Notes under the pieces: generated by a model
What the model saw: the letters and a program-made list of their open reading frames with translations, nothing else
Told to the model about the DNA's origin: nothing
Databases searched by the model: none
Part shown: piece after piece, positions 25,811 to 59,780 of the stretch
How positions within the stretch are numbered: position 1 is the first letter of the stretch
How the letters are laid out: every line of letters starts with the position of its first letter
Program-made: the position numbers and the translations under genes
NCBI RefSeq assembly: GCF_048403405.1
Contig: NZ_CP183131.1
Length of the DNA stretch: 64,000 bases
From: Escherichia coli
GTDB taxonomy: Bacteria; Pseudomonadota; Gammaproteobacteria; Enterobacterales; Enterobacteriaceae
Direction: 5' to 3' (one strand)

Positions 25811-25840
25811 AAAACGCTGTAATTGCCCTTTTGGGGTGCA
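25811..25840 (-). promoter_or_regulatory. AcaCD/SetCD-type activator box candidate (unit G promoter)
   Basis: Sense TGCACCCCAAAAGGGCAATTACAGCG. The -10-like CATACT lies 31 nt downstream. Confidence 0.45.
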
Positions 25841-25846
25841 AAAGAA

Positions 25847-25872
25847 AAAGCCCTCCCGAAGGAGGGCTTTTT
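25847..25872 (-). terminator. rho-independent terminator after the 817-aa gene
   Basis: Sense AAAAGCCCTCC-TTCG-GGAGGGCTTTTTCTTTT. Confidence 0.85.
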
Positions 25873-28324
25873 ATGCGGCCAAGGACAAGCCTTGCTGTCC
25901 TCTTTGCAACTCTGTGTCGTCGCGGCGATGTAAGCGTTGAACCGCCTTGATCATCGTTCTGACATGTCGCTCCAAAGAGGCTGGATGGCGTTTTGACAGT
26001 AGGTTGATCCAGTCGAGATAGATAGCAAGCGCGGAACCTTCGGTTAGGGCTGCCTGTATCGCCTCATACTGCCCTACGGCACTCTGGACCACATCATTCA
26101 CCCACTGGGCGTCAGTATTGTCCAAGAGCTCGCAGAGGGCCGTATAAGCCTTCCTTCTGGTCGCGGCCATGTAACGACGAATGTTGGCGTTTCCGCTCCC
26201 CTCTCGCCCTTCCATGACGCTCATACAGAATGCGCTGGAGTAACAAAGCATCGCGTCAGTCACGTAGTTAAACCATCGCTCCTGATGCCGTTTCTGTTCT
26301 TCCATTGCTTCCTGGTCAAGTTGCTTCTCGATGAACAACCCCGTCGGAGTACGGTGGTGCAGATGGTACTTGAACGTTAAGTGCAAGTTGACCCACCAGC
26401 GTACCGTTGCCAGTCTTCCCTTGATTTTTCGCTTCACCAGATCTTTGTACTTAGCATCGCTAAGCACTTTGACATCCTTGCGCTGTTGGATTCCTTCCAT
26501 CGTCTGTAGCCCTGTAAGGCCCATCTGGTGGTAGGTTTGACCTCTTTGCATCATACGGTGATACAAAGCGCCTTTTCCTTTCGCAAGCTGGATTGCTCCG
26601 AACCGAAGGTAGAACTGCGCTGCACTACCGGGCGTATAATGTCCCTTTAGTACAGACTCCCTTAGTCGCGGGTATTCGTTCCAGATGATGAACGCAGCGG
26701 AGTCGGGATCGACTTTCACTTCATCATCTTCTGCGAAGCAAACCACCCTTCTCTTTCCGTCTGCGGTATTGATCACTTGCGCTGCCAACGGGTCATCCCC
26801 GCCGTCAAAGTAAGCCATTTCCGCTAACGGATCGGCCAAGCCATCAGAAAGCGAACCATCGCCCCAGCGACCAACCTTCAACCACAATGGCTTCGGAATT
26901 GGTGACTGAGGAACGGTTTCACACTGCGGCTCGTCTTCCAGCAAGTCCAGATCACCCATCGACCAAACCCTGTGGTAAATCTCCAGGGCATGGAAAGGCT
27001 TATCATTGAAATGATGGAAGGCCCACATGAAGTCGATATGGACTAAAGCCTCTTCCGATATGATCCGGAATTGTGGCTCTGCCATTCGACGGTTCCAGTC
27101 GTTATCCTCTGCTTGACCAGTAGCCAGCTTGTATGCCAGCTCATCAGCTCTCTTTTGCTCCATGTAGTCCATGCTGCAACAGACATGAAGCAATCGTTCT
27201 AGGAAAACAGGACTGTAAACGTCCGGCTGTATTTTGATGTATCCGCCCTCGTAAATCGTTCGACCTACGGGATGGCGGTCTTCCCATGCGTACCGGCGTT
27301 TTGCCAAGTAGCGCTGGATGCGGTTCAGCCCCGACATATAGCCATGCCTTTCAGGGTCCGTGGCAAGCAACGTCTCCATTGACTTATCCAACCCAACAGC
27401 CTGGCAAGCCCAGCAACCGAAGCGAGCGCCACAGGCGTCACTGGCCTTCTTCTCTGTTGCCGACCACACGCACTCCCCTGTTGCCGCCTTGTAAAGCTCT
27501 GCCGTAGTGACATTGCTCTCCAAGTAACTTGGCAGAGGATATGCTGAGCCCATGCCAGCGGATAGTAAGAACTCCCAGACATCACTCGCCAACCAGTTTT
27601 TCACCACATACAGCTCACCCCCATCTTTCGTCTTAATGACGCGATCTGAGCTTCCTCGCTGTTTTGCAATGTTGGCCGCACGAATAGTGCTTTCAGCATC
27701 ACGACTGCCCAGCAAAAGGCAGACTTTCTGTCGAACCTCTTTGGGAAGCTCTCGCATATAAGCTGCCTTCGCTCTTTTGGCAGAGGTGATTTTTAAATCC
27801 TGGCTACACTGGCGGGCCGTGGAGTTGGAAAACGTAGGCAACCCCCTCCCAGTAAGGATTCGGCCCGTCCAACTCTGCGAGATCCCAGGCTTTGCTAGAA
27901 CGATGGTCAGAGGAAGGTTTTCCTTCGCAATGAAACGCTCCAGCTCGGCCAGTTTCTGATCCGCCAGCCACCTTACCTCTGGGCTTTCGATCAGTGTGTC
28001 AGTGTGCAAGATGAAGTGGTGCTGGCTGATGGTCGCCCCACTCCTTACAGCCCGGATCAGGGCCATCAGGAACAGGTGCAAGACCGTTTCAGAATCTTTA
28101 CCACTGGAATAGCCGATCATCATGGTCCACCCATCAATTAAGGCCGTGTGAATGGACTCAACCGATGACGTGATCAACGATGACAGACTGGTTCCTCTAC
28201 TGGCATCAACGAAGTTCAAATCCTCGTTATCAGTCAGTTCTGACCAAACAGAATCCCACTTATCCCCACGCAAAAGCACTGGGATGGGTTGTTCTGATAG
28301 ATCAAAGTTTAATGTTTGTTGCAT
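25871..28324 (-). CDS. PAPS-reductase/DndC-like PP-loop ATPase domain protein (817 aa)
   Basis: PP-loop MIGYSSGKDSETVL near the N-terminus, with a long uncharacterised C-terminal region. Confidence 0.75.
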   Translation of the reverse strand: MQQTLNFDLSEQPIPVLLRGDKWDSVWSELTDNEDLNFVDASRGTSLSSLITSSVESIHTALIDGWTMMIGYSSGKDSETVLHLFLMALIRAVRSGATISQHHFILHTDTLIESPEVRWLADQKLAELERFIAKENLPLTIVLAKPGISQSWTGRILTGRGLPTFSNSTARQCSQDLKITSAKRAKAAYMRELPKEVRQKVCLLLGSRDAESTIRAANIAKQRGSSDRVIKTKDGGELYVVKNWLASDVWEFLLSAGMGSAYPLPSYLESNVTTAELYKAATGECVWSATEKKASDACGARFGCWACQAVGLDKSMETLLATDPERHGYMSGLNRIQRYLAKRRYAWEDRHPVGRTIYEGGYIKIQPDVYSPVFLERLLHVCCSMDYMEQKRADELAYKLATGQAEDNDWNRRMAEPQFRIISEEALVHIDFMWAFHHFNDKPFHALEIYHRVWSMGDLDLLEDEPQCETVPQSPIPKPLWLKVGRWGDGSLSDGLADPLAEMAYFDGGDDPLAAQVINTADGKRRVVCFAEDDEVKVDPDSAAFIIWNEYPRLRESVLKGHYTPGSAAQFYLRFGAIQLAKGKGALYHRMMQRGQTYHQMGLTGLQTMEGIQQRKDVKVLSDAKYKDLVKRKIKGRLATVRWWVNLHLTFKYHLHHRTPTGLFIEKQLDQEAMEEQKRHQERWFNYVTDAMLCYSSAFCMSVMEGREGSGNANIRRYMAATRRKAYTALCELLDNTDAQWVNDVVQSAVGQYEAIQAALTEGSALAIYLDWINLLSKRHPASLERHVRTMIKAVQRLHRRDDTELQRGQQGLSLAA

Positions 28325-28474
28325 AGGGCCTCCTGGATTAGCAGGGTGCCCATCCCTTCCGGGAAAGCACCCCGGTAGGGTTAAAATTGAATCCTGGCTA
28401 TCAGACCTGAATGAATCGCCACGGGTTTAACAGACACCTCAGAGTCATTTAAGATGGCTTAAAGAGAGGTGCCC

Positions 28475-28753
28475 ATGAGCGGTAAGCGTTATCCCGAAGA
28501 GTTTAAAATTGAAGCAGTCAAACAGGTTGTTGATCGCGGTTATTCTGTTGCCAGCGTTGCAACACGTCTCGATATCACCACCCACAGCCTTTACGCCTGG
28601 ATAAAGAAGTACGGTCCGGATTCTTCCACTAATAAAGAACAGTCAGATGCTCAGGCCGAGATCCGCCGTCTCCAGAAAGAGCTGAAGCGGGTTACCGACG
28701 AACGGGACATATTAAAAAAAGCCGCGGCGTACTTCGCAAAGCTGTCCGACTGA
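28475..28753 (+). CDS. IS3-family transposase OrfA (HTH)
   Basis: MSGKRYPEEFKIEAVKQV.. and a leucine-zipper-like C-terminus ..RDILKKAAAYFA. Confidence 0.9.
   Translation: MSGKRYPEEFKIEAVKQVVDRGYSVASVATRLDITTHSLYAWIKKYGPDSSTNKEQSDAQAEIRRLQKELKRVTDERDILKKAAAYFAKLSD
28714..28720 (+). promoter_or_regulatory. programmed -1 ribosomal frameshift site (A7 then G)
   Basis: ATATTAAAAAAAGCC. orfB is in the -1 frame relative to orfA. Confidence 0.75.
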
Positions 28754-28809
28754 GGTACGCCTTTATCCGTGACAACACCTGTTGCTGGCCTGTTCGCCTG
28801 CTCTGTCGG

Positions 28810-29622
28810 GTGCTGGATGTTCATCCCAGTGGTTTTTACGCCTGGCTTCAGCAGCCGCATTCACAACGCCATCAGGCAGACCTAAGACTGACAGGACAGA
28901 TTAAACAGTTCTGGCTGGAATCGGGATGCATCTATGGTTATCGCAAAATCCATCTGGATCTGCGGGACAGCGGGCAACAGTGCGGAGTGAACAGAGTCTG
29001 GCGACTGATGAAACGTGTCGGGATAAAGGCTCAGGTTGGATACCGGAGCCCGCGAGCACGTAAAGGCGAAGCCAGTATCGTGTCGCCCAACAGGCTCCAG
29101 CGACAGTTCAATCCGGATGCTCCGGATGAGCGTTGGGTAACGGACATAACCTACATCAGGACCCACGAAGGCTGGCTGTATCTTGCCGTGGTTGTTGATC
29201 TGTTCTCACGCAAAATTATCGGCTGGTCCATGCAATCCCGGATGACAAAGGACATTGTCCTGAACGCACTGCTGATGGCTGTATGGCGGCGTAATCCCCA
29301 AAAACAGGTGCTGGTTCATTCGGATCAGGGCAGTCAATACACAAGCCATGAGTGGCAGTCGTTCCTGAAATCACACGGCCTGGAGGGCAGCATGAGCCGT
29401 CGCGGTAACTGCCATGATAATGCGGTTGCAGAAAGCTTTTTCCAGTTGTTGAAACGCGAACGGATAAAGAAAAAGCTCTACGGAACGCGGGAAGAAGCCC
29501 GCAGCGATATTTTTGATTACATCGAAATGTTTTATAACAGTAAGCGTCGGCATGGTTCTAGCGATCAGATGTCACCGACAGAATATGAAAACCAGTATTA
29601 TCAACGGCTCGGAAGTGTCTAG
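28810..29622 (+). CDS. IS3-family transposase OrfB (DDE integrase core), expressed as OrfAB fusion
   Basis: DDE-type motifs WVTDITYI, HSDQGSQYTS and NAVAESFF. The frame is open upstream to the slippery site. Confidence 0.9.
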   Translation: MLDVHPSGFYAWLQQPHSQRHQADLRLTGQIKQFWLESGCIYGYRKIHLDLRDSGQQCGVNRVWRLMKRVGIKAQVGYRSPRARKGEASIVSPNRLQRQFNPDAPDERWVTDITYIRTHEGWLYLAVVVDLFSRKIIGWSMQSRMTKDIVLNALLMAVWRRNPQKQVLVHSDQGSQYTSHEWQSFLKSHGLEGSMSRRGNCHDNAVAESFFQLLKRERIKKKLYGTREEARSDIFDYIEMFYNSKRRHGSSDQMSPTEYENQYYQRLGSV

Positions 29623-29643
29623 ATTATCCGTGGCGATTCAGAA

Positions 29644-30030
29644 CTAGCTGCTACTCGACATCTGGTTGTCTTCGTATTGCTGCTTGGCCTGTTTCACCAG
29701 ATCAATGTCACCGTCTTGCAGCTTTTGAATATCAAGCTGTAGACGAGCCTTGTGTTTCAACAGTTCAGCGACCGCATTATCAATGTGATCAATGAGCGAT
29801 TGGTTTTTTTGGATGGTGTAACTGTTGAGTTCATCGAGCAGGGGCCATGCAACACTCGAATGAGTGTTGAGCAATGGGTACTCTGCTTCGATCTCACAAA
29901 CCACACCGTTTGCTCCTTCTCTGTAATGAGGGAACCCGACACGCAGACCGATACGACGATCCAGCGCTGCATTTACAGTACATTCCAAAGAAGTTCGGTT
30001 TGAAAAAACATCGTTGACGTTTTTAGACAT
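29644..30030 (-). CDS. hypothetical protein (128 aa)
   Basis: First cistron of unit F. The IS3-family element inserted directly after its stop codon, at the GAA duplicated as the TSD. Confidence 0.65.
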   Translation of the reverse strand: MSKNVNDVFSNRTSLECTVNAALDRRIGLRVGFPHYREGANGVVCEIEAEYPLLNTHSSVAWPLLDELNSYTIQKNQSLIDHIDNAVAELLKHKARLQLDIQKLQDGDIDLVKQAKQQYEDNQMSSSS

Positions 30031-30091
30031 GCTATATCTCCGTTCAGTTTATGACGGAGCCCCCCTAACAGGAGGTGCTCCCGTCAGGGTT
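30031..30091 (-). promoter_or_regulatory. leader RNA switch (ACGGGAG / CUCCGU / ACGGAG)
   Basis: Sense AACCCUGACGGGAGCACCUCCUGUUAGGGGGGCUCCGUCAUAAACUGAACGGAGAUAUAGCAUG. Confidence 0.6.
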
Positions 30092-30098
30092 GATAATT

Positions 30099-30148
30099 TG
30101 CTGTTTGTTTTTGGCAGCCAGCTACCGCACTTGAGCGCCTAAGGCACT
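30099..30148 (-). promoter_or_regulatory. P1-P2 leader element, copy F (best ops match GCGGTAGC)
   Basis: Sense AGUGCC-UUA-GGCGCUCAAGUGCGG-UAGCUGG-CUGCCAAAAACAAACAGCA. Confidence 0.65.
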
Positions 30149-30262
30149 TTCCGAAGCACCCTGGGAAACCGAGATGCTTGGGAAAGCGCGGGGTTTCCCC
30201 CTGCGCTGATTACCCTTTTTAAGGGGCCGGTACGCCGATTTCTCGGCGCACTCAGGTTGAAG

Positions 30263-30817
30263 CTACACAGTCAAGAACCAACGTTTCATAGGGACGGTGA
30301 TGTCTATCATCCCGTTTCCACATGGATTCTGGCCCCAGAATCTGTAGGTCGTCTCATAGAAGTCAAACTCAGACAAGGACTGAATCTGCGCTTCTGAGAT
30401 CGGCTCAAATGGTCCACCGCAACCGATGTGCATATTGAGCCCATAATCTCGAAGCTCTAGCTCTCCGAGATTTAGCGTCTTCCCGCCCACACAAGCAACC
30501 AAGTTCTGGTTTCTGACGTCGCCTTCTTTGAACAGCAAAGCTGACTCATCGTAGCTCCCATATTGGTTGGTAAACTTCACAATATGCCCGTGCTTAGGTG
30601 AGGTTTGTTCCGACAACTCTTTCAGTAATCGCTTTACGCTTTGAAATCTCGCGTACAGAGCTGGCGTAAACTGCCCAGAGTAGTTCAAGTTTGGGCAGAT
30701 CATTTCAAGCATCTCATCAGGTACAGATTCAAGCCCCATTTGCGCGGCCAATGGCTTCGCCTTTTTCAGACCTTCCTCAAGCACTCTCTGATTTACAAGT
30801 TGTTCTAATGTGTTCAT
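30263..30817 (-). CDS. hypothetical protein (184 aa)
   Basis: Start MNTLEQLV after GGAGAG. Last cistron of unit E, followed by two GC hairpins. Confidence 0.65.
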   Translation of the reverse strand: MNTLEQLVNQRVLEEGLKKAKPLAAQMGLESVPDEMLEMICPNLNYSGQFTPALYARFQSVKRLLKELSEQTSPKHGHIVKFTNQYGSYDESALLFKEGDVRNQNLVACVGGKTLNLGELELRDYGLNMHIGCGGPFEPISEAQIQSLSEFDFYETTYRFWGQNPCGNGMIDITVPMKRWFLTV

Positions 30818-30890
30818 TTGACTCTCCACTTTCGAGAGAGCAATGCAAGCCGTCTCCGGACTTACATTGCCCGTTAACGGCTTTATTGGT

Positions 30891-31322
30891 TTATCCCAAG
30901 AGGTACGGAGCTACGCCAGTCAGGAAGCCCATGACTCCCAACACAGCGCCAACCACGCCCAATTTGATTGACAGTTGGACACTTTGATCCGGATGGTTCC
31001 AGAACCACTGCCAGACTTCCCAGCGCCTGGCTCTGCGAACCTCAAGATTTACAGTGTCTTTAAAACGAACACCCAGAGCATCTACCGCATCGTAATCCAG
31101 CGCGACCGCCAGCTTTGTGATGGATAAATTCCCAGGGTTGCCCATCGCATACCGGAGAACCTTTGCTTTGGTCTCTGGGTTTACGATCATAACCGGCTCC
31201 CTCCTGAAAAAACGGGTCTTGTCTTTTCGCTTGGAATCCATGTTGCGGTTATGGAACCTGGCAATGCAGTGTTGAAGGCCTGAATCCTCGGGAGGTAAAG
31301 GCACAACAGTTTCGATTTTCAT
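30891..31322 (-). CDS. hypothetical protein with C-terminal TM anchor (143 aa)
   Basis: Start MKIETVV after AAGGAGAG. C-terminus is LGVVGAVLGVMGFLTGVAPYLLG. Confidence 0.6.
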   Translation of the reverse strand: MKIETVVPLPPEDSGLQHCIARFHNRNMDSKRKDKTRFFRREPVMIVNPETKAKVLRYAMGNPGNLSITKLAVALDYDAVDALGVRFKDTVNLEVRRARRWEVWQWFWNHPDQSVQLSIKLGVVGAVLGVMGFLTGVAPYLLG

Positions 31323-31382
31323 GATTACTCTCCTTTCGGATAGGCCGGAGCAAAGGCCTTTCGGCATTGCCCCGGTGAGTTA

Positions 31383-33008: not shown

Positions 33009-33085
33009 GAGCTCTCTCCTTTCGGTTGAGAGGCCACTACCGTCCCAATCGGGAAGTAATGGCCCCGATGGGTTTAAAGTGGTTC

Positions 33086-33388
33086 TCAGTTCACAGCGAT
33101 GCCGTGAGACTGAATGGCATTAGCAAAGCCAGCCATTTGTTCAGGGAAGGTGTAGCGGTTGATGTCCTGGCTGCGAGCCAGATTGACATGCACCTTCTTC
33201 ACCTTCGTTTCGTCAGAGTCGTACTTTTCAAGCGCCAGCTTCTCAGCTTCTTCCGGATCTCGGCCCAGCGAGTAGGCGTAAATCACAGAGGTGAAGCCAA
33301 GTCCTGAGCCGAATGCGTAGACTTGTTTCTCGAAATGGACGTCAGCGAAATAGATGCTGAATCCGGATTTGAGGTTATGTTTTTCCAT
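33086..33388 (-). CDS. hypothetical protein (100 aa)
   Basis: Start MEKHNLKS after GGAGUGCAUC. This 5' UTR is shared with the genes starting at 42044 and 46879. Confidence 0.6.
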   Translation of the reverse strand: MEKHNLKSGFSIYFADVHFEKQVYAFGSGLGFTSVIYAYSLGRDPEEAEKLALEKYDSDETKVKKVHVNLARSQDINRYTFPEQMAGFANAIQSHGIAVN

Positions 33389-33465
33389 GATGCACTCCAA
33401 ATAGTTTGGGGGCGCACCACGTCCCGAACCGGGCGGATGCACCCGGTTTAGGGTTAGTAGATTGC

Positions 33466-33810: not shown

Positions 33811-33880
33811 AGTTGTGGCTCCATGTTTGTCAGGGAACCACCAGCCCGAGGGGCAGTGATCCCCCAAGGGTTATGTAGAA

Positions 33881-33939
33881 TGCTGTTTGTTTGGGGAGGC
33901 CAGCTACCTCACTATTCACTCTCGACAGAGAGCAAAATC
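33881..33939 (-). promoter_or_regulatory. P1-P2 leader element, copy E
   Basis: Sense GAUUUUGCUCUC-UGUC-GAGAGUGAAUAGUGAGG-UAGCUGG-CCUCCCCAAACAAACAGCA. Confidence 0.65.
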
Positions 33940-37684: not shown

Positions 37685-38224
37685 TTATCGAGGGTTGGTG
37701 AATCGAATGGCTTTACCAACGAAATCGGCCATCAGTCGATTCCCAGTAGAGCTGAAATAGCTCTGCCACTCTTTCCAACCACCAACGGATTCCACCGAGC
37801 TTGGAGACTCGAAGATACCCCAGATACGCATTTCACAACCTCGTTGCAACACTCGGTTTACCTGGTCAACCAAGTATTCCTTGTTCTGCAATGAAGAGAG
37901 GTTGCAAGGCATCTGCATGATCAGCTTTTCAGCTTGCTCGAAGTCGATTTTTTCAATCAACCCCGTGCGGGTATCCACAGAGAATGGAACCACCTGTTGA
38001 CCGTGGTTAGACCACAACCAATGGGTGATATAGATCGGATTAACGCCAACTTCCGCTGGCACCAATACGCTGCCGCAAGACCGCAACAGCCAGACCAGAC
38101 GTAAACCATCGAATCGATCCAGAGACTCCACATCGGTAGTGATGTCATCCTGGTAGATTTCAGGCAGCTTATGTTCGGCGGCGAGAGAGATCATTACGGA
38201 TTTGAGATTGTTCAGATGAGACAT
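37685..38224 (-). CDS. hypothetical protein (179 aa)
   Basis: AAGGAG SD. First cistron of unit D. Confidence 0.65.
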   Translation of the reverse strand: MSHLNNLKSVMISLAAEHKLPEIYQDDITTDVESLDRFDGLRLVWLLRSCGSVLVPAEVGVNPIYITHWLWSNHGQQVVPFSVDTRTGLIEKIDFEQAEKLIMQMPCNLSSLQNKEYLVDQVNRVLQRGCEMRIWGIFESPSSVESVGGWKEWQSYFSSTGNRLMADFVGKAIRFTNPR

Positions 38225-38294
38225 GTGTGCTCCTTAAAGTAACTTGGGCACACAGAGCCTGTCAGGCGCAGTGCGCCCTTAGGCTGAGGTTGAA

Positions 38295-38352
38295 TGCTGT
38301 TTGTTTTTGGCGACCAGCTATCGCACGTTTCGCCCTCAGAGAGGACAAAATT
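38295..38352 (-). promoter_or_regulatory. P1-P2 leader element, copy D
   Basis: Sense AAUUUUGUCCUC-UCU-GAGGGCGAAACGUGCGA-UAGCUGG-UCGCCAAAAACAAACAGCA. Confidence 0.65.
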
Positions 38353-38444
38353 CACTTTCTCAGCAACCCTCAATGAAGGCCTCTGAGAAAGTGGGAGGGT
38401 ATTCCCTCCTCACTTTGATTGTTCCACGAGAGCTGTGTGAACAG

Positions 38445-38473
38445 GAACGCTCAAACTGCCCTTTTCGGGTGCA
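38445..38473 (-). promoter_or_regulatory. AcaCD/SetCD-type activator box candidate (unit D promoter)
   Basis: Sense TGCACCCGAAAAGGGCAGTTTGAGCG. Confidence 0.45.
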
Positions 38474-38488
38474 AAGCTCAAAGACGCA

Positions 38489-38824: not shown

Positions 38825-38885
38825 AGACTCTCCAAATAAAAACGGCCACCCCCGAAGGGATAGCCGTTTGTCGTTTCACTTCCTG

Positions 38886-40682
38886 TTAAGCTGCAAAAGC
38901 AGTCAATGACCGCTCCATCAACTTAAACAGTGTGCGTTGCAGAGCTGCCGCATCATCAATGACAATGTTCTTTTGGAACAGTCCTGACACTGCGGTAGTC
39001 TCTACCCCTATGCCGATCACCTCAACATCGCTTCGTTCACAGAGGTCAATCACTGAGCGACATGCCGGGGCGCTTTGAGGCTGCCCGTCAGTCACTACGA
39101 TCAACATTTTTCGCTCTTCACGGGTCTTGGTGAGTTCAAAAGCTGCATACCACATAGCTTCCGCCATAGGCGTACCGCCAGTTGCTTTGAACCCAAACCG
39201 ACCGGCCCGATTCTGAACCGTATCTCCATGCTTCACGACACTGAACACTGGCTGGTTCCGGTTGCCACCAAAAAAGGTGACTGCCGGGTTTACGCCGGGT
39301 ATTGCTTCCAGAGCCATCGAAATAGCCAAGGACGCTTCCCGCGCAATGTCTTGACGCTCCTTTCCATTGGCGGCCTTGTAGGCCATCGAGGAGCTCATAT
39401 CAACCAGGATGTGAACCGCCGTATTAGGGCGTTTCTTGGCTTCCGGCTTGAGGAATACGCGGGTATCACCCGTCACTACACGATGTAGTTTCCGAGCATC
39501 CACACGCTTCCCTGATCGTTGGTTACGGTGAGCAACTCGCTGGCTGGCCTGGACCAATCCGTAGAGCTGCGTTCTTATCTTTGAAGTGGTGCTCTTCACA
39601 TCCCCTACCAGGCTTTTGCCAACAGCAGGGTTGTCCTGGGTGTTCACAGCAGAGCGAACAGTCATATAGCTACTGTCCCCCTTATCTTGAGCCACCCGGT
39701 TGAGCTCGGCTTTAAGTGCATCATGCGCGTCACCACGCAAATCACCGGCACCGGCATTCAGAACCTGCTGGAGCATTTTGGCCGCGTCTTGTTTCGCCGC
39801 GTCAGAATTGCCACCAGCCTGGCTTTGTCCTGCCTTGCTGCCACCATCAGTATCCGACTTGCCTTGGTCGCCCTGTCCTTTCGGATCAGATTTCCCGTTA
39901 GCATCGTCTTGCTTCTGGTCTTTACCTTGCTGATCACCACCATTGGCATCAGGCCCTTGGTTTTGATCGTTACCACTTCCGCCCTGACTGTTCTGAGGTT
40001 GGTTGCCACCAGCATTCTGCTGGTTGTTACCATCCTGACCATTCAGGGGCTTTTGCTCTTCTTTCTCCTTTTCCTCCTCGATCATCTTGATGATTTGGTC
40101 GGCCAAGGATGTCACCTCTGCGGTTGACTTAGTGTTCACAGCCTTACGCAGTAAAGCGTTCAGCCGAACAACAACACCCTGAGGGAACACGCGCTCGAAT
40201 ACGGGGGTAGCCGAATCGAGATAGGGTTGAAGGACGGATTGCCCTACAGCCTTGGTTTGCAACCAGTACAAACAAAACCCTGTCAGAATGGAGGCAGGGG
40301 CCTCTTTGTCTGTGACGTGCTCGTAATGACCAGCTTGAGCCATATAGCGAGCAACCTCATTCAGGGTCTGCGACGTACCGGGGAAGAGTTCCATCATGGC
40401 CCGTTCTATGCGGCAGTCCTCCAAAACGTTGGACAACTCAGCATGAAGACCTCTGCGGCGCTCAACACCAAAGTCCGTAAACCGGACATGGGCTGCTTCA
40501 TGGGCCAAATACCCCCAGACAGCATCCATGTGAGGATAGTCGTCGGGGATATTCGGAACCACGATGGTCTTACCATCGGTGTATGCGTCATCGTTACCGA
40601 TGGCGACTTTGACACCGAGTTTTTCACCATAGGCTGCGGCCACGATTGGTAGAGCGCTGTAAATGGTGCGTTTTTTGGACAT
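38886..40682 (-). CDS. CobT-like protein: N-terminal HExxH zincin-like region, Q/N/G/D-rich linker, C-terminal VWA domain
   Basis: AHEAAHV motif. MIDAS VDMSSSM. About 100 aa of low-complexity linker. Confidence 0.8.
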   Translation of the reverse strand: MSKKRTIYSALPIVAAAYGEKLGVKVAIGNDDAYTDGKTIVVPNIPDDYPHMDAVWGYLAHEAAHVRFTDFGVERRRGLHAELSNVLEDCRIERAMMELFPGTSQTLNEVARYMAQAGHYEHVTDKEAPASILTGFCLYWLQTKAVGQSVLQPYLDSATPVFERVFPQGVVVRLNALLRKAVNTKSTAEVTSLADQIIKMIEEEKEKEEQKPLNGQDGNNQQNAGGNQPQNSQGGSGNDQNQGPDANGGDQQGKDQKQDDANGKSDPKGQGDQGKSDTDGGSKAGQSQAGGNSDAAKQDAAKMLQQVLNAGAGDLRGDAHDALKAELNRVAQDKGDSSYMTVRSAVNTQDNPAVGKSLVGDVKSTTSKIRTQLYGLVQASQRVAHRNQRSGKRVDARKLHRVVTGDTRVFLKPEAKKRPNTAVHILVDMSSSMAYKAANGKERQDIAREASLAISMALEAIPGVNPAVTFFGGNRNQPVFSVVKHGDTVQNRAGRFGFKATGGTPMAEAMWYAAFELTKTREERKMLIVVTDGQPQSAPACRSVIDLCERSDVEVIGIGVETTAVSGLFQKNIVIDDAAALQRTLFKLMERSLTAFAA

Positions 40683-42044: not shown

Positions 42045-42126
42045 GATGCACTCCAAAAAGTTGGGGGCGCACCACGTCCCGAACCGGGCGGATGCGCCCG
42101 GTTGGGCTAGTAAATTAACGTTAATT

Positions 42127-42185
42127 TGCTGTTTGTTTTTGGCGACCAGCTATCGCACTTTTCGCTCTCCGAAGAGAACAAAATC
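42127..42185 (-). promoter_or_regulatory. P1-P2 leader element, copy C (UUCG tetraloop in P1)
   Basis: Sense GAUUUUGUUCUC-UUCG-GAGAGCGAAAAGUGCGA-UAGCUGG-UCGCCAAAAACAAACAGCA. Confidence 0.65.
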
Positions 42186-44400: not shown

Positions 44401-44928
44401 TTACCCGCCAGCCAAGTGGTGCAGCCGCATGAACGGGATGTCATCATCCCAGCCATCAGGAGCGGGACCATAGCCTCCGCCCATACCACCTTGCGGTGCT
44501 GATTGCTGCACAGGAGCAGATTGCGTACCGGCTCCTGTACGTTGCCCTTTTTGGGGCGCTGCACGTTGAGAGTTGTCCTGAGGTGCATTTCCACGACCAC
44601 CAAGCATCTGCATTTCAACGCAGTGTACTTCGGTGGTGTAGCGCTCGATTTGTTGGCTGTCAGTCCACTTCCGGGTGCGGTTGCTCCCTTCGAGATAGAC
44701 TTGGGAGCCCTTTTTCAGGTACTCACCAGCGACTTCTGCCAAACGACCTTTAAGCACAATACGGTGCCACTCAGTATGCTCTCTTTGCTCGCCAGACTGC
44801 TTATCGCGCCACGTATCCGTTGTTGCAACGTTGAAGTTGGCAACGGCAGTTCCGCTTGGCATGTAGCGAATTTCCGGGTCAGAACCGAGATTACCGACCA
44901 GAATTACTTTGTTGACGCCTTTAGACAT
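44401..44928 (-). CDS. ssb: single-stranded DNA-binding protein with internal DDDIPF and 9-aa C-terminal extension
   Basis: OB-fold N-terminus [12 protein letters not shown]. Gly/Gln-rich linker. ..[16 protein letters not shown] stop. Confidence 0.9.
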
Positions 44929-46879: not shown

Positions 46880-46945
46880 AGGTGCGCTCCTATTGTGACA
46901 GGCGCACCACGTCCCGAACCGGGCGGATGCGCCCGGTTGGGCTAG
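46880..46945 (-). promoter_or_regulatory. leader RNA switch (GGCGCAUC / GGUGCGCC / GCGCACC after SD)
   Basis: Sense AACCGGGCGCAUCCGCCCGGUUCGGGACGUGGUGCGCCUGUCACAAUAGGAGCGCACCUAUG. Confidence 0.6.
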
Positions 46946-46961
46946 TAAATTAACGTTAATT

Positions 46962-47020
46962 TGCTGTTTGTTTTTGGCGACCAGCTATCGCACTTTTCGC
47001 TCTCCGAAGAGAACAAAATC
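46962..47020 (-). promoter_or_regulatory. P1-P2 leader element, copy B (identical to copy C)
   Basis: Part of the 121-bp perfect repeat 46901-47021 = 42066-42186. Confidence 0.65.
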
Positions 47021-54454: not shown

Positions 54455-55716
54455 TCACCGCCCTCCTCAGCAAGTTCGCGGACAACAAACTTCTTGCCTC
54501 TGGCAGTAATGACGCTCGGTGTGTGCTCCAGCTCGAACCGGGTAATCAGATCTGGCGTCAGCAGATATACCGGCGCGTCAAAGTTGTCGGTGACACTCTT
54601 GTAGGAATCCCAGCCTTTGTCTTTGTCGAACTCTGTGGCGATATAGGTAATCCGTTGTACGCCAGGTTCCTGCTTAATTTCAGGCAGCTTCTTGGCGAGC
54701 AGCTCCATTTGCTTTTTGTCCAGCGGGTCGAAAACTACGACCGCTTGGGTAAATGGCCGCGTTCCAGGCTTGCAAACTTCCTTCGGATCGCACAATGGGT
54801 TGATCACGTCACCCGCGTGAGCGAACACAGTGCCATCCGGAGTGCTGATGTCACTGGTGATCATGACGCTAGGGTCAATTTCTCGTGTTCGAGATTTTGG
54901 CGCTCTGGGCAGCTCATTGAAATTCTGCTTGGTCCAGAAGCGCTCTATAGCCTGTTTCTTCTTCTCTTCCCAGTCGATATTGGCAAGGCGTTTCTTGGCA
55001 ACATCAATAAGGTCTGGCTCACTGATTTTCTCCACCGGCCCCTTAACGCCGAGATCGCCTTTTTCTCCGTTATCCACTTCCCGAGCCAACCATACCGGGT
55101 CGGACAACCCGGAGACCTGGGCGACGACGTTTGGTTGTTCGCCAGGCAGCGGCTCATCCTCCAGCATCACAATCGTGGGAACGGCTGTGATGTTGTACGT
55201 TTTGAACAACGTAGGGTTGATGATGATGTTCGGCACTGGGTCTTTTTTGGCCGCGAGCGCCTGAATAGCTTTAACTCCCTGCCCCAAGTTCATTCCTTCC
55301 GGGATGCCACGGAACACAATTACAGAATCAGGCTGGCCTGACACCGCCGTTAGGACGTCATCTAACCCCTGTTCGCCAAGAGACAACGAGGCGAAAACCA
55401 GTATCCGATGGTCAGAGTAGATACCCTTTTCAGCCTGTTTCCGGTGCATCTCCTTGAGCGTTGGGTTAGTAGTTTGGAGCTGCTTGAAAAATGCCTTGGC
55501 TTCGGCCTGAGCCTCGTCCATGTGTTGGTTTTGCAACAGAGATGGCATTTCCATCTTCTGGGCCTTTTGGGCAATTTGCTTTCCTTTCTCAATAAGCGCC
55601 TTATCCTGCTCTGTGAGCGGAGACTCTTGAGCGTATGCCCCGCCAGCCACAGAGAATATCAACGCCACCAGAACGCTCTTAGAACAGGGGATATGCGCGG
55701 CCAATGATCTGATCAT
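54451..55716 (-). CDS. traW: TraW-like F-type conjugative transfer protein (long form)
   Basis: Signal peptide. Position between trhF and traU. Size and composition resemble the SXT/IncA/C TraW as remembered. Confidence 0.75.
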   Translation of the reverse strand: MIRSLAAHIPCSKSVLVALIFSVAGGAYAQESPLTEQDKALIEKGKQIAQKAQKMEMPSLLQNQHMDEAQAEAKAFFKQLQTTNPTLKEMHRKQAEKGIYSDHRILVFASLSLGEQGLDDVLTAVSGQPDSVIVFRGIPEGMNLGQGVKAIQALAAKKDPVPNIIINPTLFKTYNITAVPTIVMLEDEPLPGEQPNVVAQVSGLSDPVWLAREVDNGEKGDLGVKGPVEKISEPDLIDVAKKRLANIDWEEKKKQAIERFWTKQNFNELPRAPKSRTREIDPSVMITSDISTPDGTVFAHAGDVINPLCDPKEVCKPGTRPFTQAVVVFDPLDKKQMELLAKKLPEIKQEPGVQRITYIATEFDKDKGWDSYKSVTDNFDAPVYLLTPDLITRFELEHTPSVITARGKKFVVRELAEEGGE

Positions 55717-56209
55717 TTTTCACAGTCCCCCAGTAACGTGAGTCGAAGCTGAATGGGCTTTTGCCCATAAACCAGTAGTTATTCTCTTTCAGCGTGGTCT
55801 TGCCGTAAAAGTGGCTCTCTGGCAGATGTAGTTTCCCTGCGAGCTGGAGCCCCTCTCCGACGACATCACCATTGACGGTGATCTTCCACTTATCGTTGAT
55901 CTCGACTTTATCCCCCGGCATACCGGTGAGGATTTTGACCATGCGAGTCCCGTCCTTGTAGAAAGGCTGCATGTTCTTGGCTTGGAAGGCGTAAACAGCT
56001 CCCCTCTCCAGAGTTTGGTCGTTCAGATCAATGAGGAAGAAGGTGTAACCCGGCAGGCACTTCTCCTGTTGTGGATCAATGCCAATACGGTAGCGGCTGG
56101 CAAAGGCCGCACCAGCAGCCCAAAGAACCAGTAGTGTCACACCGGCCTTAACCCCGAAGCGCTTCCAGGATTCCTTTTTGACGAAATACTTCTTGAGTGG
56201 AAAATTCAT
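55679..56209 (-). CDS. trhF: conjugative S26-family signal peptidase TraF/TrhF
   Basis: N-terminal TM. GKSPFSFDSRYWG and ..MPGDKV.. peptidase S26 motifs. Confidence 0.85.
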   Translation of the reverse strand: MNFPLKKYFVKKESWKRFGVKAGVTLLVLWAAGAAFASRYRIGIDPQQEKCLPGYTFFLIDLNDQTLERGAVYAFQAKNMQPFYKDGTRMVKILTGMPGDKVEINDKWKITVNGDVVGEGLQLAGKLHLPESHFYGKTTLKENNYWFMGKSPFSFDSRYWGTVKNDQIIGRAYPLF

Positions 56210-56523
56210 TTCAGCACCTCATCAGGGAGGTACACGTCACTTGGAGCACCGACGACAGCACTTGCGTCAAGGACCAAATAACCTGCGTCTTTCAACTTCA
56301 AAATTGCGTCATTGGTCTTGACCATCAGTCTTTCAACTTCCTCCTGAGAGGCACCAGCGGGATACGCCGACGCCACTTTAGCGAAGTCAACCACGACCAC
56401 TGGCGGGGTTTGATTCAAACGCTGATGGATGCTTGCCGTTTGTTCGCTCATCACGTAGTAGCTACCGCCGAAGCCACCAGCGGCACCGAGAATGGCGGCG
56501 ATTGCGATTGATTTAATGTCCAT
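56206..56523 (-). CDS. small T4SS-associated membrane protein (105 aa)
   Basis: N-terminal TM IAIAAILGAAGGFGGSYYV. Translationally coupled to trhF. Confidence 0.65.
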   Translation of the reverse strand: MDIKSIAIAAILGAAGGFGGSYYVMSEQTASIHQRLNQTPPVVVVDFAKVASAYPAGASQEEVERLMVKTNDAILKLKDAGYLVLDASAVVGAPSDVYLPDEVLK

Positions 56524-56537
56524 TACTGTCTCCCTGG

Positions 56538-58985
56538 TTATGCAGCCTGCTGACGGCTTCGCATCACGGCCTTGATTGCCTCAGGAATGCTCATGCCTTG
56601 TTTCACAAACTGGTCGATGGCGTTAACGTCCACCGGATCGGTCGAATAAAGCAGCTTCTGGAAGTCGCCCACTATCAAGCGTCCGACGCCCATGCCGCTC
56701 TTCGATTTGATAAAGATTTCTGAGTACACGCCCTGGATGGTGTGTACCGTCTTGAGGGTGTGGAACCCGCCCTCTGAAAGGGTCAGACGACCGCTACGTT
56801 TAACAGATTCCACGGTTTCTTCGGTTTGGCCGAGCAAGTACATGCTGGCCGAGTTCTCCGCGATGGCGCGGCCCACTGCGTTCTCATAGAGGTCGTTGAT
56901 GGACTGCGTTGCAATGACAACGGAGCCACCGTACTTACGGAATTTGCGGTAGGCATGTTCCATGAAGACCGAGACCTCGCCCTCTTTGAGCAGGTCCCAG
57001 GCCTCATCCACGATGACGACTTTCTTGCGGTTACGTTCACCCAGGAATACTTCTTGCTGGATCTGGTAAATAAGCTGGAGCAGTACAACCTGACGCAAGT
57101 GCTTACGCCCTTGCAGTTCATCGAGCTCCAGTACAGTGAACTGGTTCTGGAAGCTGACGTTGTTCTTGCGAGAGAAGTATTTCCCGTAGCTACCTTTCGA
57201 CGTAAAGGCGTAGAGCTGCTGACCAATATCCTTGAGGCGCTGGTCGTTTTCTTCTTCCAGACAGCGCTCAGCGATGTCGTCAACCTTCATCTCTTTACCT
57301 TTCTCTTCCCACAGGCGAGAAAGGACCTGTTTCAGCGCAGAGATTTGCCATTCATCCAGCAAGCCTTTGGCCGACGCCATTGCACAAACGAGGCTGACAA
57401 TCGCGTCTTCTTCGTCCTCGTAGTTCTGTATGAGCTCGAACGGGTTGAGGCAGACGTGCGTTCCTTCTTCAAAGTGAACGAAGTCGCCATTGAGCATTTC
57501 CGACAGCTTCTGGTAGGACTTACCGGCATCAATAACCCAGACCTGAGCACCCTCGGACAAGTAGGAAAAAATCAGTTCGTTGGTAAGGAACGATTTACCC
57601 GAGCCGGATTCGGCTGCGATCACCAGGTTTTTGTTGGTATTACTGTCGTGAAGAGACAGACTCATGAGCTGGCCGTTGCGGGAAATCAGCGCTGCATGAT
57701 AGGTCCCGGTCCCCTTCCATTCCCCAAACACCGGCAGGACCACAGCCGCCTGCTCGGTTGTCATGGTCTTGTAGCGGAATAGGTCTCGCACTGCATCCCG
57801 GTCTGTACAGAATGGCAGGCAGTTGAGGAACATCGGCAGAGCAACGAACTTATCCTCCATCAGCTCGAACCGAGATTCACGCCAGATGTTTCGTGCGGCC
57901 ATCGCCGCCGCTTCAACACGTTCTTTGGTTGGAGCAAATAAAACCACCGAGTAGGTGATCTTGACTGGCTTAGCCCCCTCTTTCATGGACTCATAGAGAG
58001 TGTCGAAGCTCTCCTTTTTGTCCGCCAGCACCGGCACGAATTTGAGCATCGGCCCGTAGGCTTGGTTTACAGTGAACTGGCGTTTGCGCTCCAGAGTGTT
58101 TTTCGTGCTTTCTGCCTCAGGGAAAAACACATTGGTCACAACCATGTAGTTTTCTTTGATGCTGGAGTTGCCGCCGCTGAGATCCCCGGCATAGGTCAAC
58201 GCATCACCAAAGTAGAAAACGTCAGGCAGCTTTTTCGCTGACATGACTTTCGCGTGGTAGTCCCCCAGCCTGATGCCGTTCTTGCTGACTTCCACATCAG
58301 TGCCGTAATCGAAGATTTGCTCGCAGATGGGCTTATCCATCTCCCAATCCACAGAGTCATGTCGCCATGAAGCATCCGGCCCCCAATTCAGGATGGTGCT
58401 CATGATCCGGATGTAGTTCACCGCCGTCATTGTGCGGGGACGCAGACCAACGGTTTGAAGCGATGATTCGACCTTCGTGCGAAGCTGTGCGAGCTGCTGG
58501 AGTTCGCTTTCAGTCGGGTTATTGTTCTTGATGGGGACTTTGCACGTAACGAACAGCTTGAGGTCTTGGATCAAGCCATTGTCGTAGATACCTTTGTTGG
58601 TCTTGGCAAATATGCGTTCTGTCGTGTGGTGCTGGAGGAAGTTAATCCGTTCCTTGATGACAGATGTCAGCAGCTCGTGACGGAAGCCATCACGCAACCC
58701 CATCATCCGGTACATCTCCTGATTGATGTCCGGGGAGCGGAACAGAACAAACTGGAGCGTAGTCTTCGACGGGAACTCCTGATTCAGGAAACCGTTCATT
58801 CGCTCCTGAACTTTTTCATCGGCACCACACAGGGGCTCACACATGAAACCAAAGCCTGCACTGTGGTCATCCATAAGGAAGACATGATCGTCTTCGTCAT
58901 AGGCCAGGACAGGAATAATCCCGGCAGCTCGCAAGTGCTCCGGGATCAACGTTTCTTCGAGTTTCTTTTTGATGGTTACGATCAT
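56538..58985 (-). CDS. traC: TraC, F-type T4SS VirB4-family ATPase
   Basis: 815 aa. Walker A AAESGSGKSF and Walker B VVIVDEAWD. Confidence 0.93.
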   Translation of the reverse strand: MIVTIKKKLEETLIPEHLRAAGIIPVLAYDEDDHVFLMDDHSAGFGFMCEPLCGADEKVQERMNGFLNQEFPSKTTLQFVLFRSPDINQEMYRMMGLRDGFRHELLTSVIKERINFLQHHTTERIFAKTNKGIYDNGLIQDLKLFVTCKVPIKNNNPTESELQQLAQLRTKVESSLQTVGLRPRTMTAVNYIRIMSTILNWGPDASWRHDSVDWEMDKPICEQIFDYGTDVEVSKNGIRLGDYHAKVMSAKKLPDVFYFGDALTYAGDLSGGNSSIKENYMVVTNVFFPEAESTKNTLERKRQFTVNQAYGPMLKFVPVLADKKESFDTLYESMKEGAKPVKITYSVVLFAPTKERVEAAAMAARNIWRESRFELMEDKFVALPMFLNCLPFCTDRDAVRDLFRYKTMTTEQAAVVLPVFGEWKGTGTYHAALISRNGQLMSLSLHDSNTNKNLVIAAESGSGKSFLTNELIFSYLSEGAQVWVIDAGKSYQKLSEMLNGDFVHFEEGTHVCLNPFELIQNYEDEEDAIVSLVCAMASAKGLLDEWQISALKQVLSRLWEEKGKEMKVDDIAERCLEEENDQRLKDIGQQLYAFTSKGSYGKYFSRKNNVSFQNQFTVLELDELQGRKHLRQVVLLQLIYQIQQEVFLGERNRKKVVIVDEAWDLLKEGEVSVFMEHAYRKFRKYGGSVVIATQSINDLYENAVGRAIAENSASMYLLGQTEETVESVKRSGRLTLSEGGFHTLKTVHTIQGVYSEIFIKSKSGMGVGRLIVGDFQKLLYSTDPVDVNAIDQFVKQGMSIPEAIKAVMRSRQQAA

Positions 58986-59689
58986 TCAACACTCTCCAAC
59001 CATGATTTCAGGTTCTTCGGACGTCCTTTGCTGACACGACCATCCGGAGCAACCACGAACGGAACGCCCTCAATCCCAATGAAATGAGCTGTCAGCAGCG
59101 TTTGATCGTATTGGCCGGGGTCGCAGGTTTCTTTTGAAGGAAGGGAACCCAAGGTGTTGTTCATCAGCGCATCGAGCGCGTGGGTTTTGTCTTTCGCGCA
59201 GTACAAGTTCTTTGCCAAGCGGTTGGACTCAGCACCCAGAGCAGGAATCACGATAAATTTAAAGGTGTAATCATCCACCAGCGATTTGGCATCACCCATG
59301 AGCTGATGGCAAACCGCGCATCTAGGATCGACAAAGACCACCACCTCTTTGTCACCACGCCCCATCGAAACGGTGTTCAGCGTGTCCACATCCATGCCCA
59401 TGCTCTTGAAGTGGATACGCTCCGCTACATCCCTCATTTGGGACATCGTGTTGAGGGGCTTCTTGCTCCACAGGTCGTAGATTTGTCCTGAAATAACAAA
59501 TCGCCCGTTTTCAGAGAGGAACATGATCTGCCCATCACTTTGGACGGCTCGAACCCCTTTGATGGGTAGCTCTACGATGTCCTCTATCTTCGCCGCTCTG
59601 GGATCGGTGATTTCCAATTTCGATGACGCATGAGCCGTGCCGGTAATAATCCCGAACACCATCAGCGCCCCGAGTAATTTTGTCCGCAT
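58982..59689 (-). CDS. dsbC: DsbC-like thiol:disulfide interchange protein
   Basis: Signal peptide. CAVC active site in a thioredoxin fold. Coupled to traC. Confidence 0.85.
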   Translation of the reverse strand: MRTKLLGALMVFGIITGTAHASSKLEITDPRAAKIEDIVELPIKGVRAVQSDGQIMFLSENGRFVISGQIYDLWSKKPLNTMSQMRDVAERIHFKSMGMDVDTLNTVSMGRGDKEVVVFVDPRCAVCHQLMGDAKSLVDDYTFKFIVIPALGAESNRLAKNLYCAKDKTHALDALMNNTLGSLPSKETCDPGQYDQTLLTAHFIGIEGVPFVVAPDGRVSKGRPKNLKSWLESVE

Positions 59690-59755
59690 GTCTATCCCCT
59701 AAGATTGGATTACTGGATGCTGGGCAGTGTATCCGGGGGAGGGAAATAGACTCGC

Positions 59756-59780
59756 CTCTGTAATAGCCCAATTTGGACAA
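59756..59780 (-). promoter_or_regulatory. AcaCD/SetCD-type activator box candidate (dsbC-traC operon promoter)
   Basis: Sense TTGTCCAAATTGGGCTATTACAGAG. The -10-like TACACT lies about 33 nt downstream. Confidence 0.45.

Follow-up and report, generated by a model that had tools for sequence, protein, structure and literature searches.

Predicted AcaCD operator sites at transfer promoters of an Escherichia coli IncC plasmid, three of them followed by a repeated leader element

The closest described system is that of the prototype plasmid pVCR94, in which the binding motifs of AcaCD, the heteromeric FlhC/FlhD-like master activator of IncA/IncC conjugative plasmids, were mapped by ChIP-exo and MAST (Carraro et al. 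2014, PMC4207636). The ChIP-exo was later repeated with Cappable-seq, reproducing the AcaCD peaks, and nearly every promoter was activated by AcaCD in single-copy lacZ fusions, which covered the dsbC, traN, acaB-vcrx087, vcrx098, vcrx114, and vcrx128 regions (Durand et al. 2021, PMC8373056). In the published RNA-seq data, complementation of an acaCD deletion raised expression from 0 to 653 for dsbC, 282 to 2120 for traN, 5 to 3445 for vcrx087, 3 to 8357 for vcrx098, 1 to 2931 for vcrx114, and 0 to 349 for vcrx128. The AcaCD boxes considered here are therefore already known, the ChIP-exo, start-site, and lacZ work having been published in 2014 and 2021.

Two related activators provide further points of comparison. 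SetCD of SXT/R391 is a homologous heteromer with a class II arrangement that, like AcaCD, has a site before dsbC and another at a divergent pair (s063/s089) heading an ssb-bet-exo array; in both systems the divergent pair gives the strongest ChIP peak. Unlike those of AcaCD, SetCD targets are confined to the conserved core of SXT/R391. No SetCD site precedes traN, which is read from the dsbC operon (PMC4344509), and the authors describe a SetCD motif that “drastically differs” from those of AcaCD and FlhDC (Poulin-Laprade et al. 2015, PMC4344509). FlhD4C2 belongs to the same activator family, AcaC being annotated as an FlhC family regulator, and likewise occupies DNA that overlaps the −35 region of sigma-70 promoters and extends upstream of it, whereas its class II flagellar promoters carry a different DNA motif and form a different regulon. 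SgaCD of Salmonella genomic island 1 binds the same boxes as AcaCD (Durand et al. 2021, PMC8373056), which amounts to cross-talk by a homologue of AcaCD and does not compete with the AcaCD reading of the sites.

The stretch analyzed here, a 64-kb window, is IncC backbone with 99.9–100% identity to many IncC plasmids, and it runs in the reverse orientation of pVCR94ΔX. The two plasmids share the downstream genes, the backbone order, and the box-to-start distances, and the box sequences themselves do not differ. They do differ elsewhere: this plasmid carries an IS3-family insertion at 28411–29641 in the vcrx098–vcrx113 array, a swapped vcrx096 region (38849–38892), and a resistance island where the vcrx140 and traF boxes would come next. 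Neither acaC nor acaD lies in the 64-kb window, which does contain acaB, whose product activates acaDC. A complete IncC plasmid, NZ_CP129693.1, matches positions 1–13600 with 100% identity over 91% of that interval and encodes AcaC and AcaD under protein accessions shared with pVCR94; from such related complete plasmids we infer that AcaCD is present on this molecule as well.

Reference motifs were those of Table S3 of Carraro et al. 2014 (PMC4207636), taken from NC_023291.1, and the 5′-RACE starts published for pVCR94 were carried over to window coordinates. The original prediction had claimed five boxes, and each of the strings it quoted is present once, on the minus strand (dsbC, 59756–59780; traN, 52718–52741; unit A, 48096–48120; unit D, 38448–38473; unit G, 25815–25840). 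The comparison with the pVCR94 ChIP-exo data that it proposed showed these five sites to be identical at 29 of 29 positions to the dsbC, traN, vcrx087, vcrx098, and vcrx114 motifs. Absent from that prediction were a further box at 17878–17906 (minus strand) and a reading of the unit A box on the opposite strand (48101–48129, plus strand). All six window sites thus match a published AcaCD motif at 29/29 positions, and their cores deviate from GCCCNDWWWGGGC by 0–1 mismatch.

The dsbC box (59756–59784, minus strand; pVCR94 motif 53360–53388) has the core GTCCAAATTGGGC at 59766–59778, a −10 hexamer TACACT at 59726–59731, and a transferred start at 59718–59720; the gene itself (58982–59689) encodes DsbC domains and heads the dsbC-traC...traU operon. 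Immediately upstream of this box lies an intrinsic-terminator-like hairpin followed by T8. The traN box (52718–52746, minus strand; motif 60398–60426) has the core GCCCCAAAAGGGC at 52728–52740, the −10 hexamer TAGCAT at 52688–52693, and a start at 52681–52683, upstream of a coding sequence with a TraN family match (49865–52663). The unit A box spans 48096–48129 and is read on both strands between acaB and vcrx087. In unit D, the box (38448–38476, minus strand; motif 75267–75295) precedes vcrx098 (37685–38224), with the core ACCCGAAAAGGGC at 38458–38470 and a weak −10-like AACAAT at 38418–38423. The unit G box (25815–25843, minus strand; motif 86650–86678), upstream of vcrx114 (25466–25669), has the core ACCCCAAAAGGGC at 25825–25837, the −10 hexamer CATACT at 25787–25792, and a start at 25778–25780. 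It lies directly after a terminator-like hairpin, AAAGCCCTCCTTCGGGAGGGCTTTTTCTTTT; weak matches to ctRNA_p42d and Phe_leader at 25813–25875 fall on this hairpin and box and were read as chance. The sixth box (17878–17906, minus strand; motif 94587–94615), with the core ACCCTAAAAGGGC at 17888–17900 and a start at 17841–17842, lies upstream of an rhs/MafI-immunity pair (vcrx128–129), the RHS coding sequence occupying 13557–17711 by the corresponding annotation.

These data bear out the reading of the boxes as sites for an FlhDC-family activator, namely AcaCD: base for base they are the ChIP-exo AcaCD motifs, and their downstream genes depend on AcaCD in the published RNA-seq. Since the three activator pairs are homologous and all class II, and the original prediction had grouped AcaCD with SetCD, one could ask whether the boxes are instead targets of SetCD or flagellar FlhD4C2. 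We give this reading next to no probability, as the published SetCD motif is drastically different, SetCD has no site at traN, and the window sites are identical to sites bound by AcaCD. The same comparison qualifies one statement in the original prediction, that both IncC AcaCD and SXT SetCD sites include one before dsbC and one before traN. This holds for both AcaCD sites and for SetCD at dsbC, and it fails for SetCD at traN.

The core is a GC-clamped inverted repeat, and one-mismatch lookalikes are present at about eight further positions of the window, one of them inside ssb (44544–44556); the boxes could accordingly be chance palindromes or terminator stems that resemble an activator motif. 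The counts argue against this. At ≤1 mismatch, GCCCNDWWWGGGC has 20 matches in the window compared with 5.2 ± 2.7 in shuffled sequences, a four-fold excess that none of 100 shuffles reached. The five sites and the further published site are all among these 20, and the traN core is the only sequence in the window to fit the pattern without a mismatch. Moreover, each of the six lies between genes, is oriented like the gene that follows it, and stands at a fixed 32–35 nt from a −10 hexamer; they are identical to sequences bound in ChIP-exo; and the box recurs 85–95 nt from the loop of a downstream repeat element in 26 elements elsewhere, with differing spacers. Chance resemblance is thus extremely improbable. 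The ssb candidate (44533–44561) has no published ChIP-exo peak and was treated as non-functional, and none of the one-mismatch cores at 14150, 16065, 26509, 30733, 30869, 36124, and 39418 is among the published AcaCD motif positions.

The original prediction had also proposed a scan with published matrices. A matrix built from all 19 published AcaCD motifs ranked the six sites as the top six in 64 kb, at 21.9–30.0 bits. One built from the 12 pVCR94 sites outside the window separated them poorly, scoring the vcrx128 site at 10.2 bits when the maximum in random windows averaged 13.9 bits and reached 20.6. Because this 12-site matrix is too noisy, the matrix evidence is much weaker than the identity, and we relied on identity and on the pattern count. 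On these grounds, the five boxes and the sixth at 17878–17906 are almost certainly AcaCD operator sites, as judged from their sequence.

We then considered the promoter geometry. The last C of the core lies 34, 34, 33, and 32 nt from the −10 hexamer at dsbC, traN, and units A and G, respectively, so that the predicted spacing of about 31–33 nt holds at 32–34 nt as measured. The hexamers proposed for these four sites agree with the transferred 5′-RACE starts, ending 6–8 nt upstream of them (5.5–8 nt over all the transferred starts), and the core center falls at −51 to −53 from the starts of dsbC, traN, vcrx087, vcrx114, and vcrx128. In unit D, AACAAT is 34 nt from the last C of the core, the same register as in the other sites, though without a mapped start; its weakness, noted in the original prediction, fits the absence of a clear vcrx098 5′-RACE signal in the published data. 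The sites are intergenic and co-oriented with the downstream gene, with a core near −52 and a motif that reaches the −35 region, a class II geometry. None of these promoters other than that of vcrx087 has a recognizable −35 hexamer. Consensus sigma-70 promoters are depleted across 17–57 kb, each half having 5 where 14.5 would be expected, in keeping with transcription that depends on an activator.

Each box has a 13-bp quasi-palindromic core, GCCCNDWWWGGGC, within a 29-bp motif centered at about −52 from the transcription start and extending to about −35. In the mechanism we propose, as the motif extends this far and a −35 hexamer is lacking, bound AcaCD would act as a class II activator that brings sigma-70 RNA polymerase to a promoter with a −10 element alone, the contact between AcaCD and polymerase being inferred from this arrangement. 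The boxes would turn on the mating-pair operon dsbC-traC...traU, traN, and the divergent acaB and vcrx087, together with two long same-strand arrays starting from vcrx098 and vcrx114 and the rhs toxin locus.

The unit A box serves divergent promoters, driving acaB as well as vcrx087. Its minus-strand 29-mer (48096–48124) is identical to the vcrx087 motif at 29/29 positions and its plus-strand 29-mer (48101–48129) to the vcrx086 motif at 28/29. On the minus strand, a −10 hexamer TATATT (48067–48072) and a start at 48060–48062 precede vcrx087 (47588–47908); on the plus strand, a start at about 48165–48167 precedes acaB (vcrx086, 48202–48843), an open reading frame that matches PDB entry 6N8B, “transcription regulator AcaB,” with E = 1e-135. 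Divergent acaB-vcrx087 promoters have been described, and the vcrx087 promoter was also constitutive in lacZ assays (Durand et al. 2021, PMC8373056), which implies an input there besides box A. In its turn, acaB exerts positive feedback on acaDC.

Units A to H are defined by eight intergenic copies of a repeat family (D3), the P1-P2 elements, whose conserved cores lie within 22606–48038 on the minus strand: A, 48000–48038; B, 46957–46995; C, 42122–42160; D, 38290–38328; E, 33876–33914; F, 30094–30132; G, about 25718–25758; and H, 22606–22644. The P2 loops begin at 48030, 46987, 42152, 38320, 33906, 30124, 25751, and 22636 for A to H, respectively. The element is a strongly covarying hairpin and possibly a pseudoknot. 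There are exactly eight such units, and a box within 400 nt upstream is found in A, D, and G only; units B, C, E, F, and H have none at up to 2 mismatches. The original prediction had assigned A, D, and G to the transfer regulon and set the boxless units apart. The assignment and the lack of boxes both stand, but the boxless units are not outside the regulon, as their genes are AcaCD-dependent in the published RNA-seq: restoring acaCD takes vcrx088 to vcrx125 from about 0 to expression values in the hundreds or thousands, and vcrx087 to vcrx125 all respond alike to acaCD. This suggests that units B/C, E/F, and H are transcribed by read-through from the three unit promoters.

Where box and element occur together, the box lies 88 nt (A), 150 nt (D), and 86 nt (G) upstream of the P2 loop. 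The predicted transcription of the element in these three units agrees with mapped starts 31 nt (A) and 28 nt (G) upstream of the loop, and in unit D a start would be expected near 38412, about 90 nt from the loop on the upstream side. The near-constant 86–88 nt in A and G, a spacing that recurs in other genomes, would also be expected if the box were the 5′ part of a mobile or duplicated box-plus-leader repeat copied around the backbone and not an independent promoter element. We regard this as very unlikely: in five of the eight units the leader stands without a box, no leader follows the dsbC, traN, and vcrx128 boxes (three of the six), and the interval between them is unconserved except for the −10 region. 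No target-site duplications or conserved ends were seen around the combined unit. The fixed spacing is explained by the leader beginning a few nucleotides past the transcription start.

The P1-P2 leader is present in at least 120 DNA stretches from beta- and gammaproteobacteria, from which 124 unique copies were collected, and often lies about 88 nt downstream of an AcaCD-type box; an equivalent box lies 85–95 nt from the P2 loop in 26 elements of other genomes (18 distinct sequences), and the spacer sequence varies. It is re-used in long arrays of ssb, exonuclease, ATPase, and methylase-type genes in many beta- and gammaproteobacterial conjugative elements. No Rfam family matches it at the gathering score, and at E ≤ 5 none matches at any of the eight elements, the STAXI RNA (RF01728) and preQ1-I riboswitch (RF00522) included. 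A literature search on the leader returned nothing relevant; the “recombination hot spot” described by Hegyi et al. (2017) lies at a separate locus. RefSeq annotation of E. coli IncC plasmids over units A and B consists of protein-coding genes only.

The STAXI motif is similar in being a small repeat of pseudoknot type found in mobile DNA close to genes for ssb, topoisomerase, and anti-restriction proteins; its active form may be either RNA or single-stranded DNA. P1-P2 elements, in contrast, are dispersed, one per gene block, and not tandem. P1 loops are slightly enriched in GNRA/UNCG sequences (7 of 41 tetraloops), which favors neither RNA nor DNA. The RfaH ops element is a 12-nt sequence, GGCGGTAGCGTG, with invariant G5 and T6. 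It was rejected as an identity for the leader: GGCGGTAGC is present in a subset of copies only, the position of G5 is occupied by A in five of the eight window copies, and these bases form a covarying stem with a 3′ partner, a pairing that ops does not require.

It is possible, if somewhat less probable than not in our estimation, that AcaCD-type box and P1-P2 leader together constitute a conserved bipartite module for gene expression, in which an activator-dependent promoter would be followed by a structured RNA a few nucleotides past the transcription start. The leader RNA would comprise the P1 hairpin and a 4-bp P2 stem closed by an invariant UAGCUGG loop, followed by an A-rich tail whose terminal CAGCA might base-pair with that loop (GCUG with CAGC) to form the pseudoknot. 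Such a leader could be an undescribed cis-acting RNA. It might promote polymerase read-through of many internal hairpins, stabilize or process the long transcript, or control translation of the first gene of each block, whose ribosome-binding site lies within a hairpin. Each sub-block of the array region, boxed or boxless, opens with a P1-P2 leader, and the leader is widespread outside IncC.

Recognition of the boxes from raw sequence was thus a correct annotation that does not extend the published regulon. The AcaCD boxes set which genes an IncC multidrug-resistance plasmid turns on before transfer, and genomic islands such as SGI1 make use of the same boxes. A large block of about 39 genes of poorly understood role would depend on only three boxes, and the leader, if functional, would constitute a second, post-initiation layer of control in the transfer regulon.

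The five AcaCD-like boxes of the original prediction, placed at dsbC, traN and units A, D and G, each occur once in the window, on the minus strand, at the places stated. Units A to H are eight blocks headed by a P1-P2 leader element. The AcaCD motifs identified by ChIP-exo and MAST, with 5'-RACE starts, are listed in Table S3 of Carraro et al. 2014 (PMC4207636); these 29-mers were taken out of the pVCR94deltaX record and searched for in the window. Exact 29/29 copies were found of the dsbC, traN, vcrx087, vcrx098, vcrx114, and vcrx128 motifs, together with a 28/29 copy of the vcrx086 motif on the opposite strand. The dsbC and traN sites are therefore correctly named, and units A, D and G correspond to vcrx087, vcrx098, and vcrx114. 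The sixth box (17878-17906), upstream of an rhs/immunity pair, lies beyond the range first reported. A matrix derived from the full set of 19 published motifs placed these six loci as the top six matches in the window, and the later published core, GCCCNDWWWGGGC, gave 20 matches with at most one mismatch, compared with 5.2 ± 2.7 in shuffles. The ssb coding sequence contains a palindrome that nearly matches the AcaCD core, CCCCAAAAAGGGC (44544-44556), where no ChIP-exo peak has been published.

The 25-45-kb part of the window shares 99.9% identity with many complete IncC plasmids from Klebsiella, Escherichia, and others, and positions 13229-60925 match a section of NZ_CP028996.1 at 100% identity; the annotation of that record provided our gene map. 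The IncC prototype pVCR94deltaX (NC_023291.1) is collinear in reverse orientation, with 97.8-99.5% identity and a few insertions and replacements. The acaC and acaD genes are located beyond the window limits; NZ_CP129693.1, a complete IncC plasmid matching the left end of the window, carries both, with the same protein accessions as pVCR94. Positions 1-5307 fall outside the pVCR94 backbone. IS903B copies and blaCTX-M-14 are annotated in related plasmids under the match to 27-13600, and this resistance island adjoins a Tus-like gene, where the backbone would go on to the vcrx140 and traF boxes. Directly downstream of the rhs/immunity genes, 12038-13228 is inserted sequence that both NZ_CP028996.1 and pVCR94 lack; it contains a plus-strand 326-amino acid ORF (12102-13082) that we take, from its sequence, to be an IS5-family transposase.

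Published 5'-RACE starts were carried over onto window coordinates, giving starts at 59718-59720 for dsbC (-10 TACACT), 52681-52683 for traN (TAGCAT), 48060-48062 for vcrx087 (TATATT), and 25778-25780 for vcrx114 (CATACT). These four predicted hexamers end 6-8 nt ahead of the transferred starts. For vcrx128 (start 17841-17842), the -10 AAAATA was called in this analysis. The gap from core to -10 is 32-34 nt at the five predicted sites and 35 nt at vcrx128, the core centers on -51 to -53, and the 29-nt motif extends as far as about -35, the same geometry as the class II arrangement described by the AcaCD authors. In unit D, AACAAT stands in the same register as the other -10 hexamers; vcrx098 gave no clear 5'-RACE signal, yet its RNA rose from 3 to 8357 units (Carraro et al. 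2014, PMC4207636). Across 17000-56999, sites resembling consensus sigma-70 promoters show an about three-fold depletion (5 versus 14.5 ± 4.6 and 5 versus 14.4 ± 3.8 expected).

AcaCD is a FlhC/FlhD-like heteromer required for IncC transfer, and genes downstream of the boxes are near zero in an acaCD deletion and reach hundreds or thousands of units on complementation. Durand et al. 2021 (PMC8373056) repeated the ChIP-exo, ran Cappable-seq as well, and constructed single-copy lacZ fusions with the dsbC, traN, acaB-vcrx087, vcrx098, vcrx114, and vcrx128 promoter regions; AcaCD directly activated nearly all of them, and the vcrx087 promoter was constitutive too. Because ChIP-exo, Cappable-seq, RNA, and lacZ data exist for identical sequences, all the checks originally proposed (ChIP-exo, transcription starts, lacZ fusions) have already been published, with positive outcome. 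The observation is thus confirmed and its AcaCD interpretation supported with minor corrections, and the finding is already known in detail. One correction concerns SXT, for which a SetCD site before traN had been suggested: in SXT/R391, traN has no promoter of its own and is missing from the listed SetCD targets. The SetCD motif of SXT/R391 is also distinct from that of AcaCD. Two divergent promoters share the unit A box, and the plus-strand gene at 48202-48843 encodes AcaB (PDB entry 6N8B, E = 1e-135). Since AcaB is reported to activate acaDC, the unit A box completes a positive feedback loop.

Units B, C, E, F, and H had been described as lacking a box. This stands, as no box was found within 400 nt of these units even with two mismatches allowed; nevertheless, vcrx088 to vcrx125 all depend on AcaCD in published RNA data. 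A review by the group behind the AcaCD studies attributes bet and exo expression to the vcrx087 promoter. On the minus strand there are strong terminator-like hairpins: one at 38869-38840, one immediately upstream of the unit G box, and two more at 21881-21861 and 19262-19239. Together, these data suggest three long transcription units, A-B-C, D-E-F, and G-H. An IS3-family element (28411-29641, transposase on the plus strand), inserted relative to pVCR94, separates the first gene of unit F (29644-30030) from a PAPS-reductase-like gene (25871-28324); within the vcrx098-box-driven array, it may be polar on the downstream gene.

The eight units have in common one conserved intergenic element on the sense strand, composed of P1, a hairpin that varies in sequence and has a U-rich/A-rich base; a short linker rich in purines; P2, a 4-bp stem that closes the invariant loop TAGCTGG; and, 3-4 nt after P2, the tail AAACAAACAGCA. 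On the minus strand, it occupies 48000-48038 (A), 46957-46995 (B), 42122-42160 (C), 38290-38328 (D), 33876-33914 (E), 30094-30132 (F), about 25718-25758 (G), and 22606-22644 (H). In units A, D, and G, the element lies downstream of the box and, as predicted, is transcribed: in A and G the P2 loop comes just 31 and 28 nt after the mapped start, so that P1 begins within about 10 nt of the RNA 5' end. Six units combine a full-length tail with a called ORF; in these, the first gene begins 49-92 nt past the conserved core. Between about 22300 and 48000 on the minus strand, the ribosome-binding site and start codon of each unit's first gene lie within the 3' arm of a further GC-rich hairpin, reminiscent of the translational attenuator that has been reported for SXT upstream of bet. 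Many other intergenic regions also contain tandem GGGG...CCCC hairpins (repeat families D8, D9, D11, D12, D14, and D17). Just 3' of the tail, units B (46940-46960), C (42105-42125), and H (22589-22609) carry on the minus strand a perfect 16-nt palindrome, AAATTAACGTTAATTT, which also follows the tail in copies from several further genomes and may form a hairpin or serve as a protein-binding site.

Scanning one genome per species with TAGCTGG-N7-AAACAAACAGCA returned at least 120 DNA stretches (L007-L126), against about four expected by chance. The matches listed belong to beta- and gammaproteobacteria, and several copies often share a contig and a strand. The P2 stem covaries strongly: in the 124 unique copies among these matches, each of its four pairs is Watson-Crick in 93-99% and occurs as at least three pair types, and in an 85-sequence alignment, 94 cells changed on both sides versus 28.6 ± 4.3 in shuffles (0/500). 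Taking all eight counted pairs together, pairing in the matches listed comes to 99.3%, and for P2 itself to 98.5%, compared with 19-59% when the partner is slid. Folding of their P1 region is also better than that of shuffled sequence (mean z -1.97) despite 111 distinct hairpin sequences. GCUG of the loop could pair with CAGC of the tail; of the rare variants among the matches listed, one is compensatory (loop TAGCTAG, tail ...ATAGCA), three replace C by U and retain G.U pairs, and two are disruptive. This candidate pseudoknot is suggestive only.

In the matches listed, the first ORF follows the tail by a median of 77 nt, and its products are diverse (exonuclease-like, SSB, DUF3150, ATPase, and others). 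Also among these matches, 26 of 152 copies from other genomes have an AcaCD-type core, GCCCNDWWWGGGC, upstream of the P2 loop (background, 0.019 per 200 nt), 23 of them at 85-95 nt, mostly 88, like unit A; examples are loci L011, L023, L034, L035, L042, L047, L048, L064, L071, and L126. In these listed other-genome copies, the box, -10 region, and leader are conserved and the spacer is not. On this sequence evidence, the box-then-P1-P2 arrangement is conserved well beyond IncC.

The leader could act in antitermination/read-through, RNA stability or processing, or translational control. It may instead act as single-stranded DNA; we weakly favor an RNA role because of its fixed position after the transcription start and its tolerance of G.U pairs. 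The element matches no Rfam family and carries no RefSeq annotation. This widespread leader is the most novel item near the boxes and merits its own evaluation.
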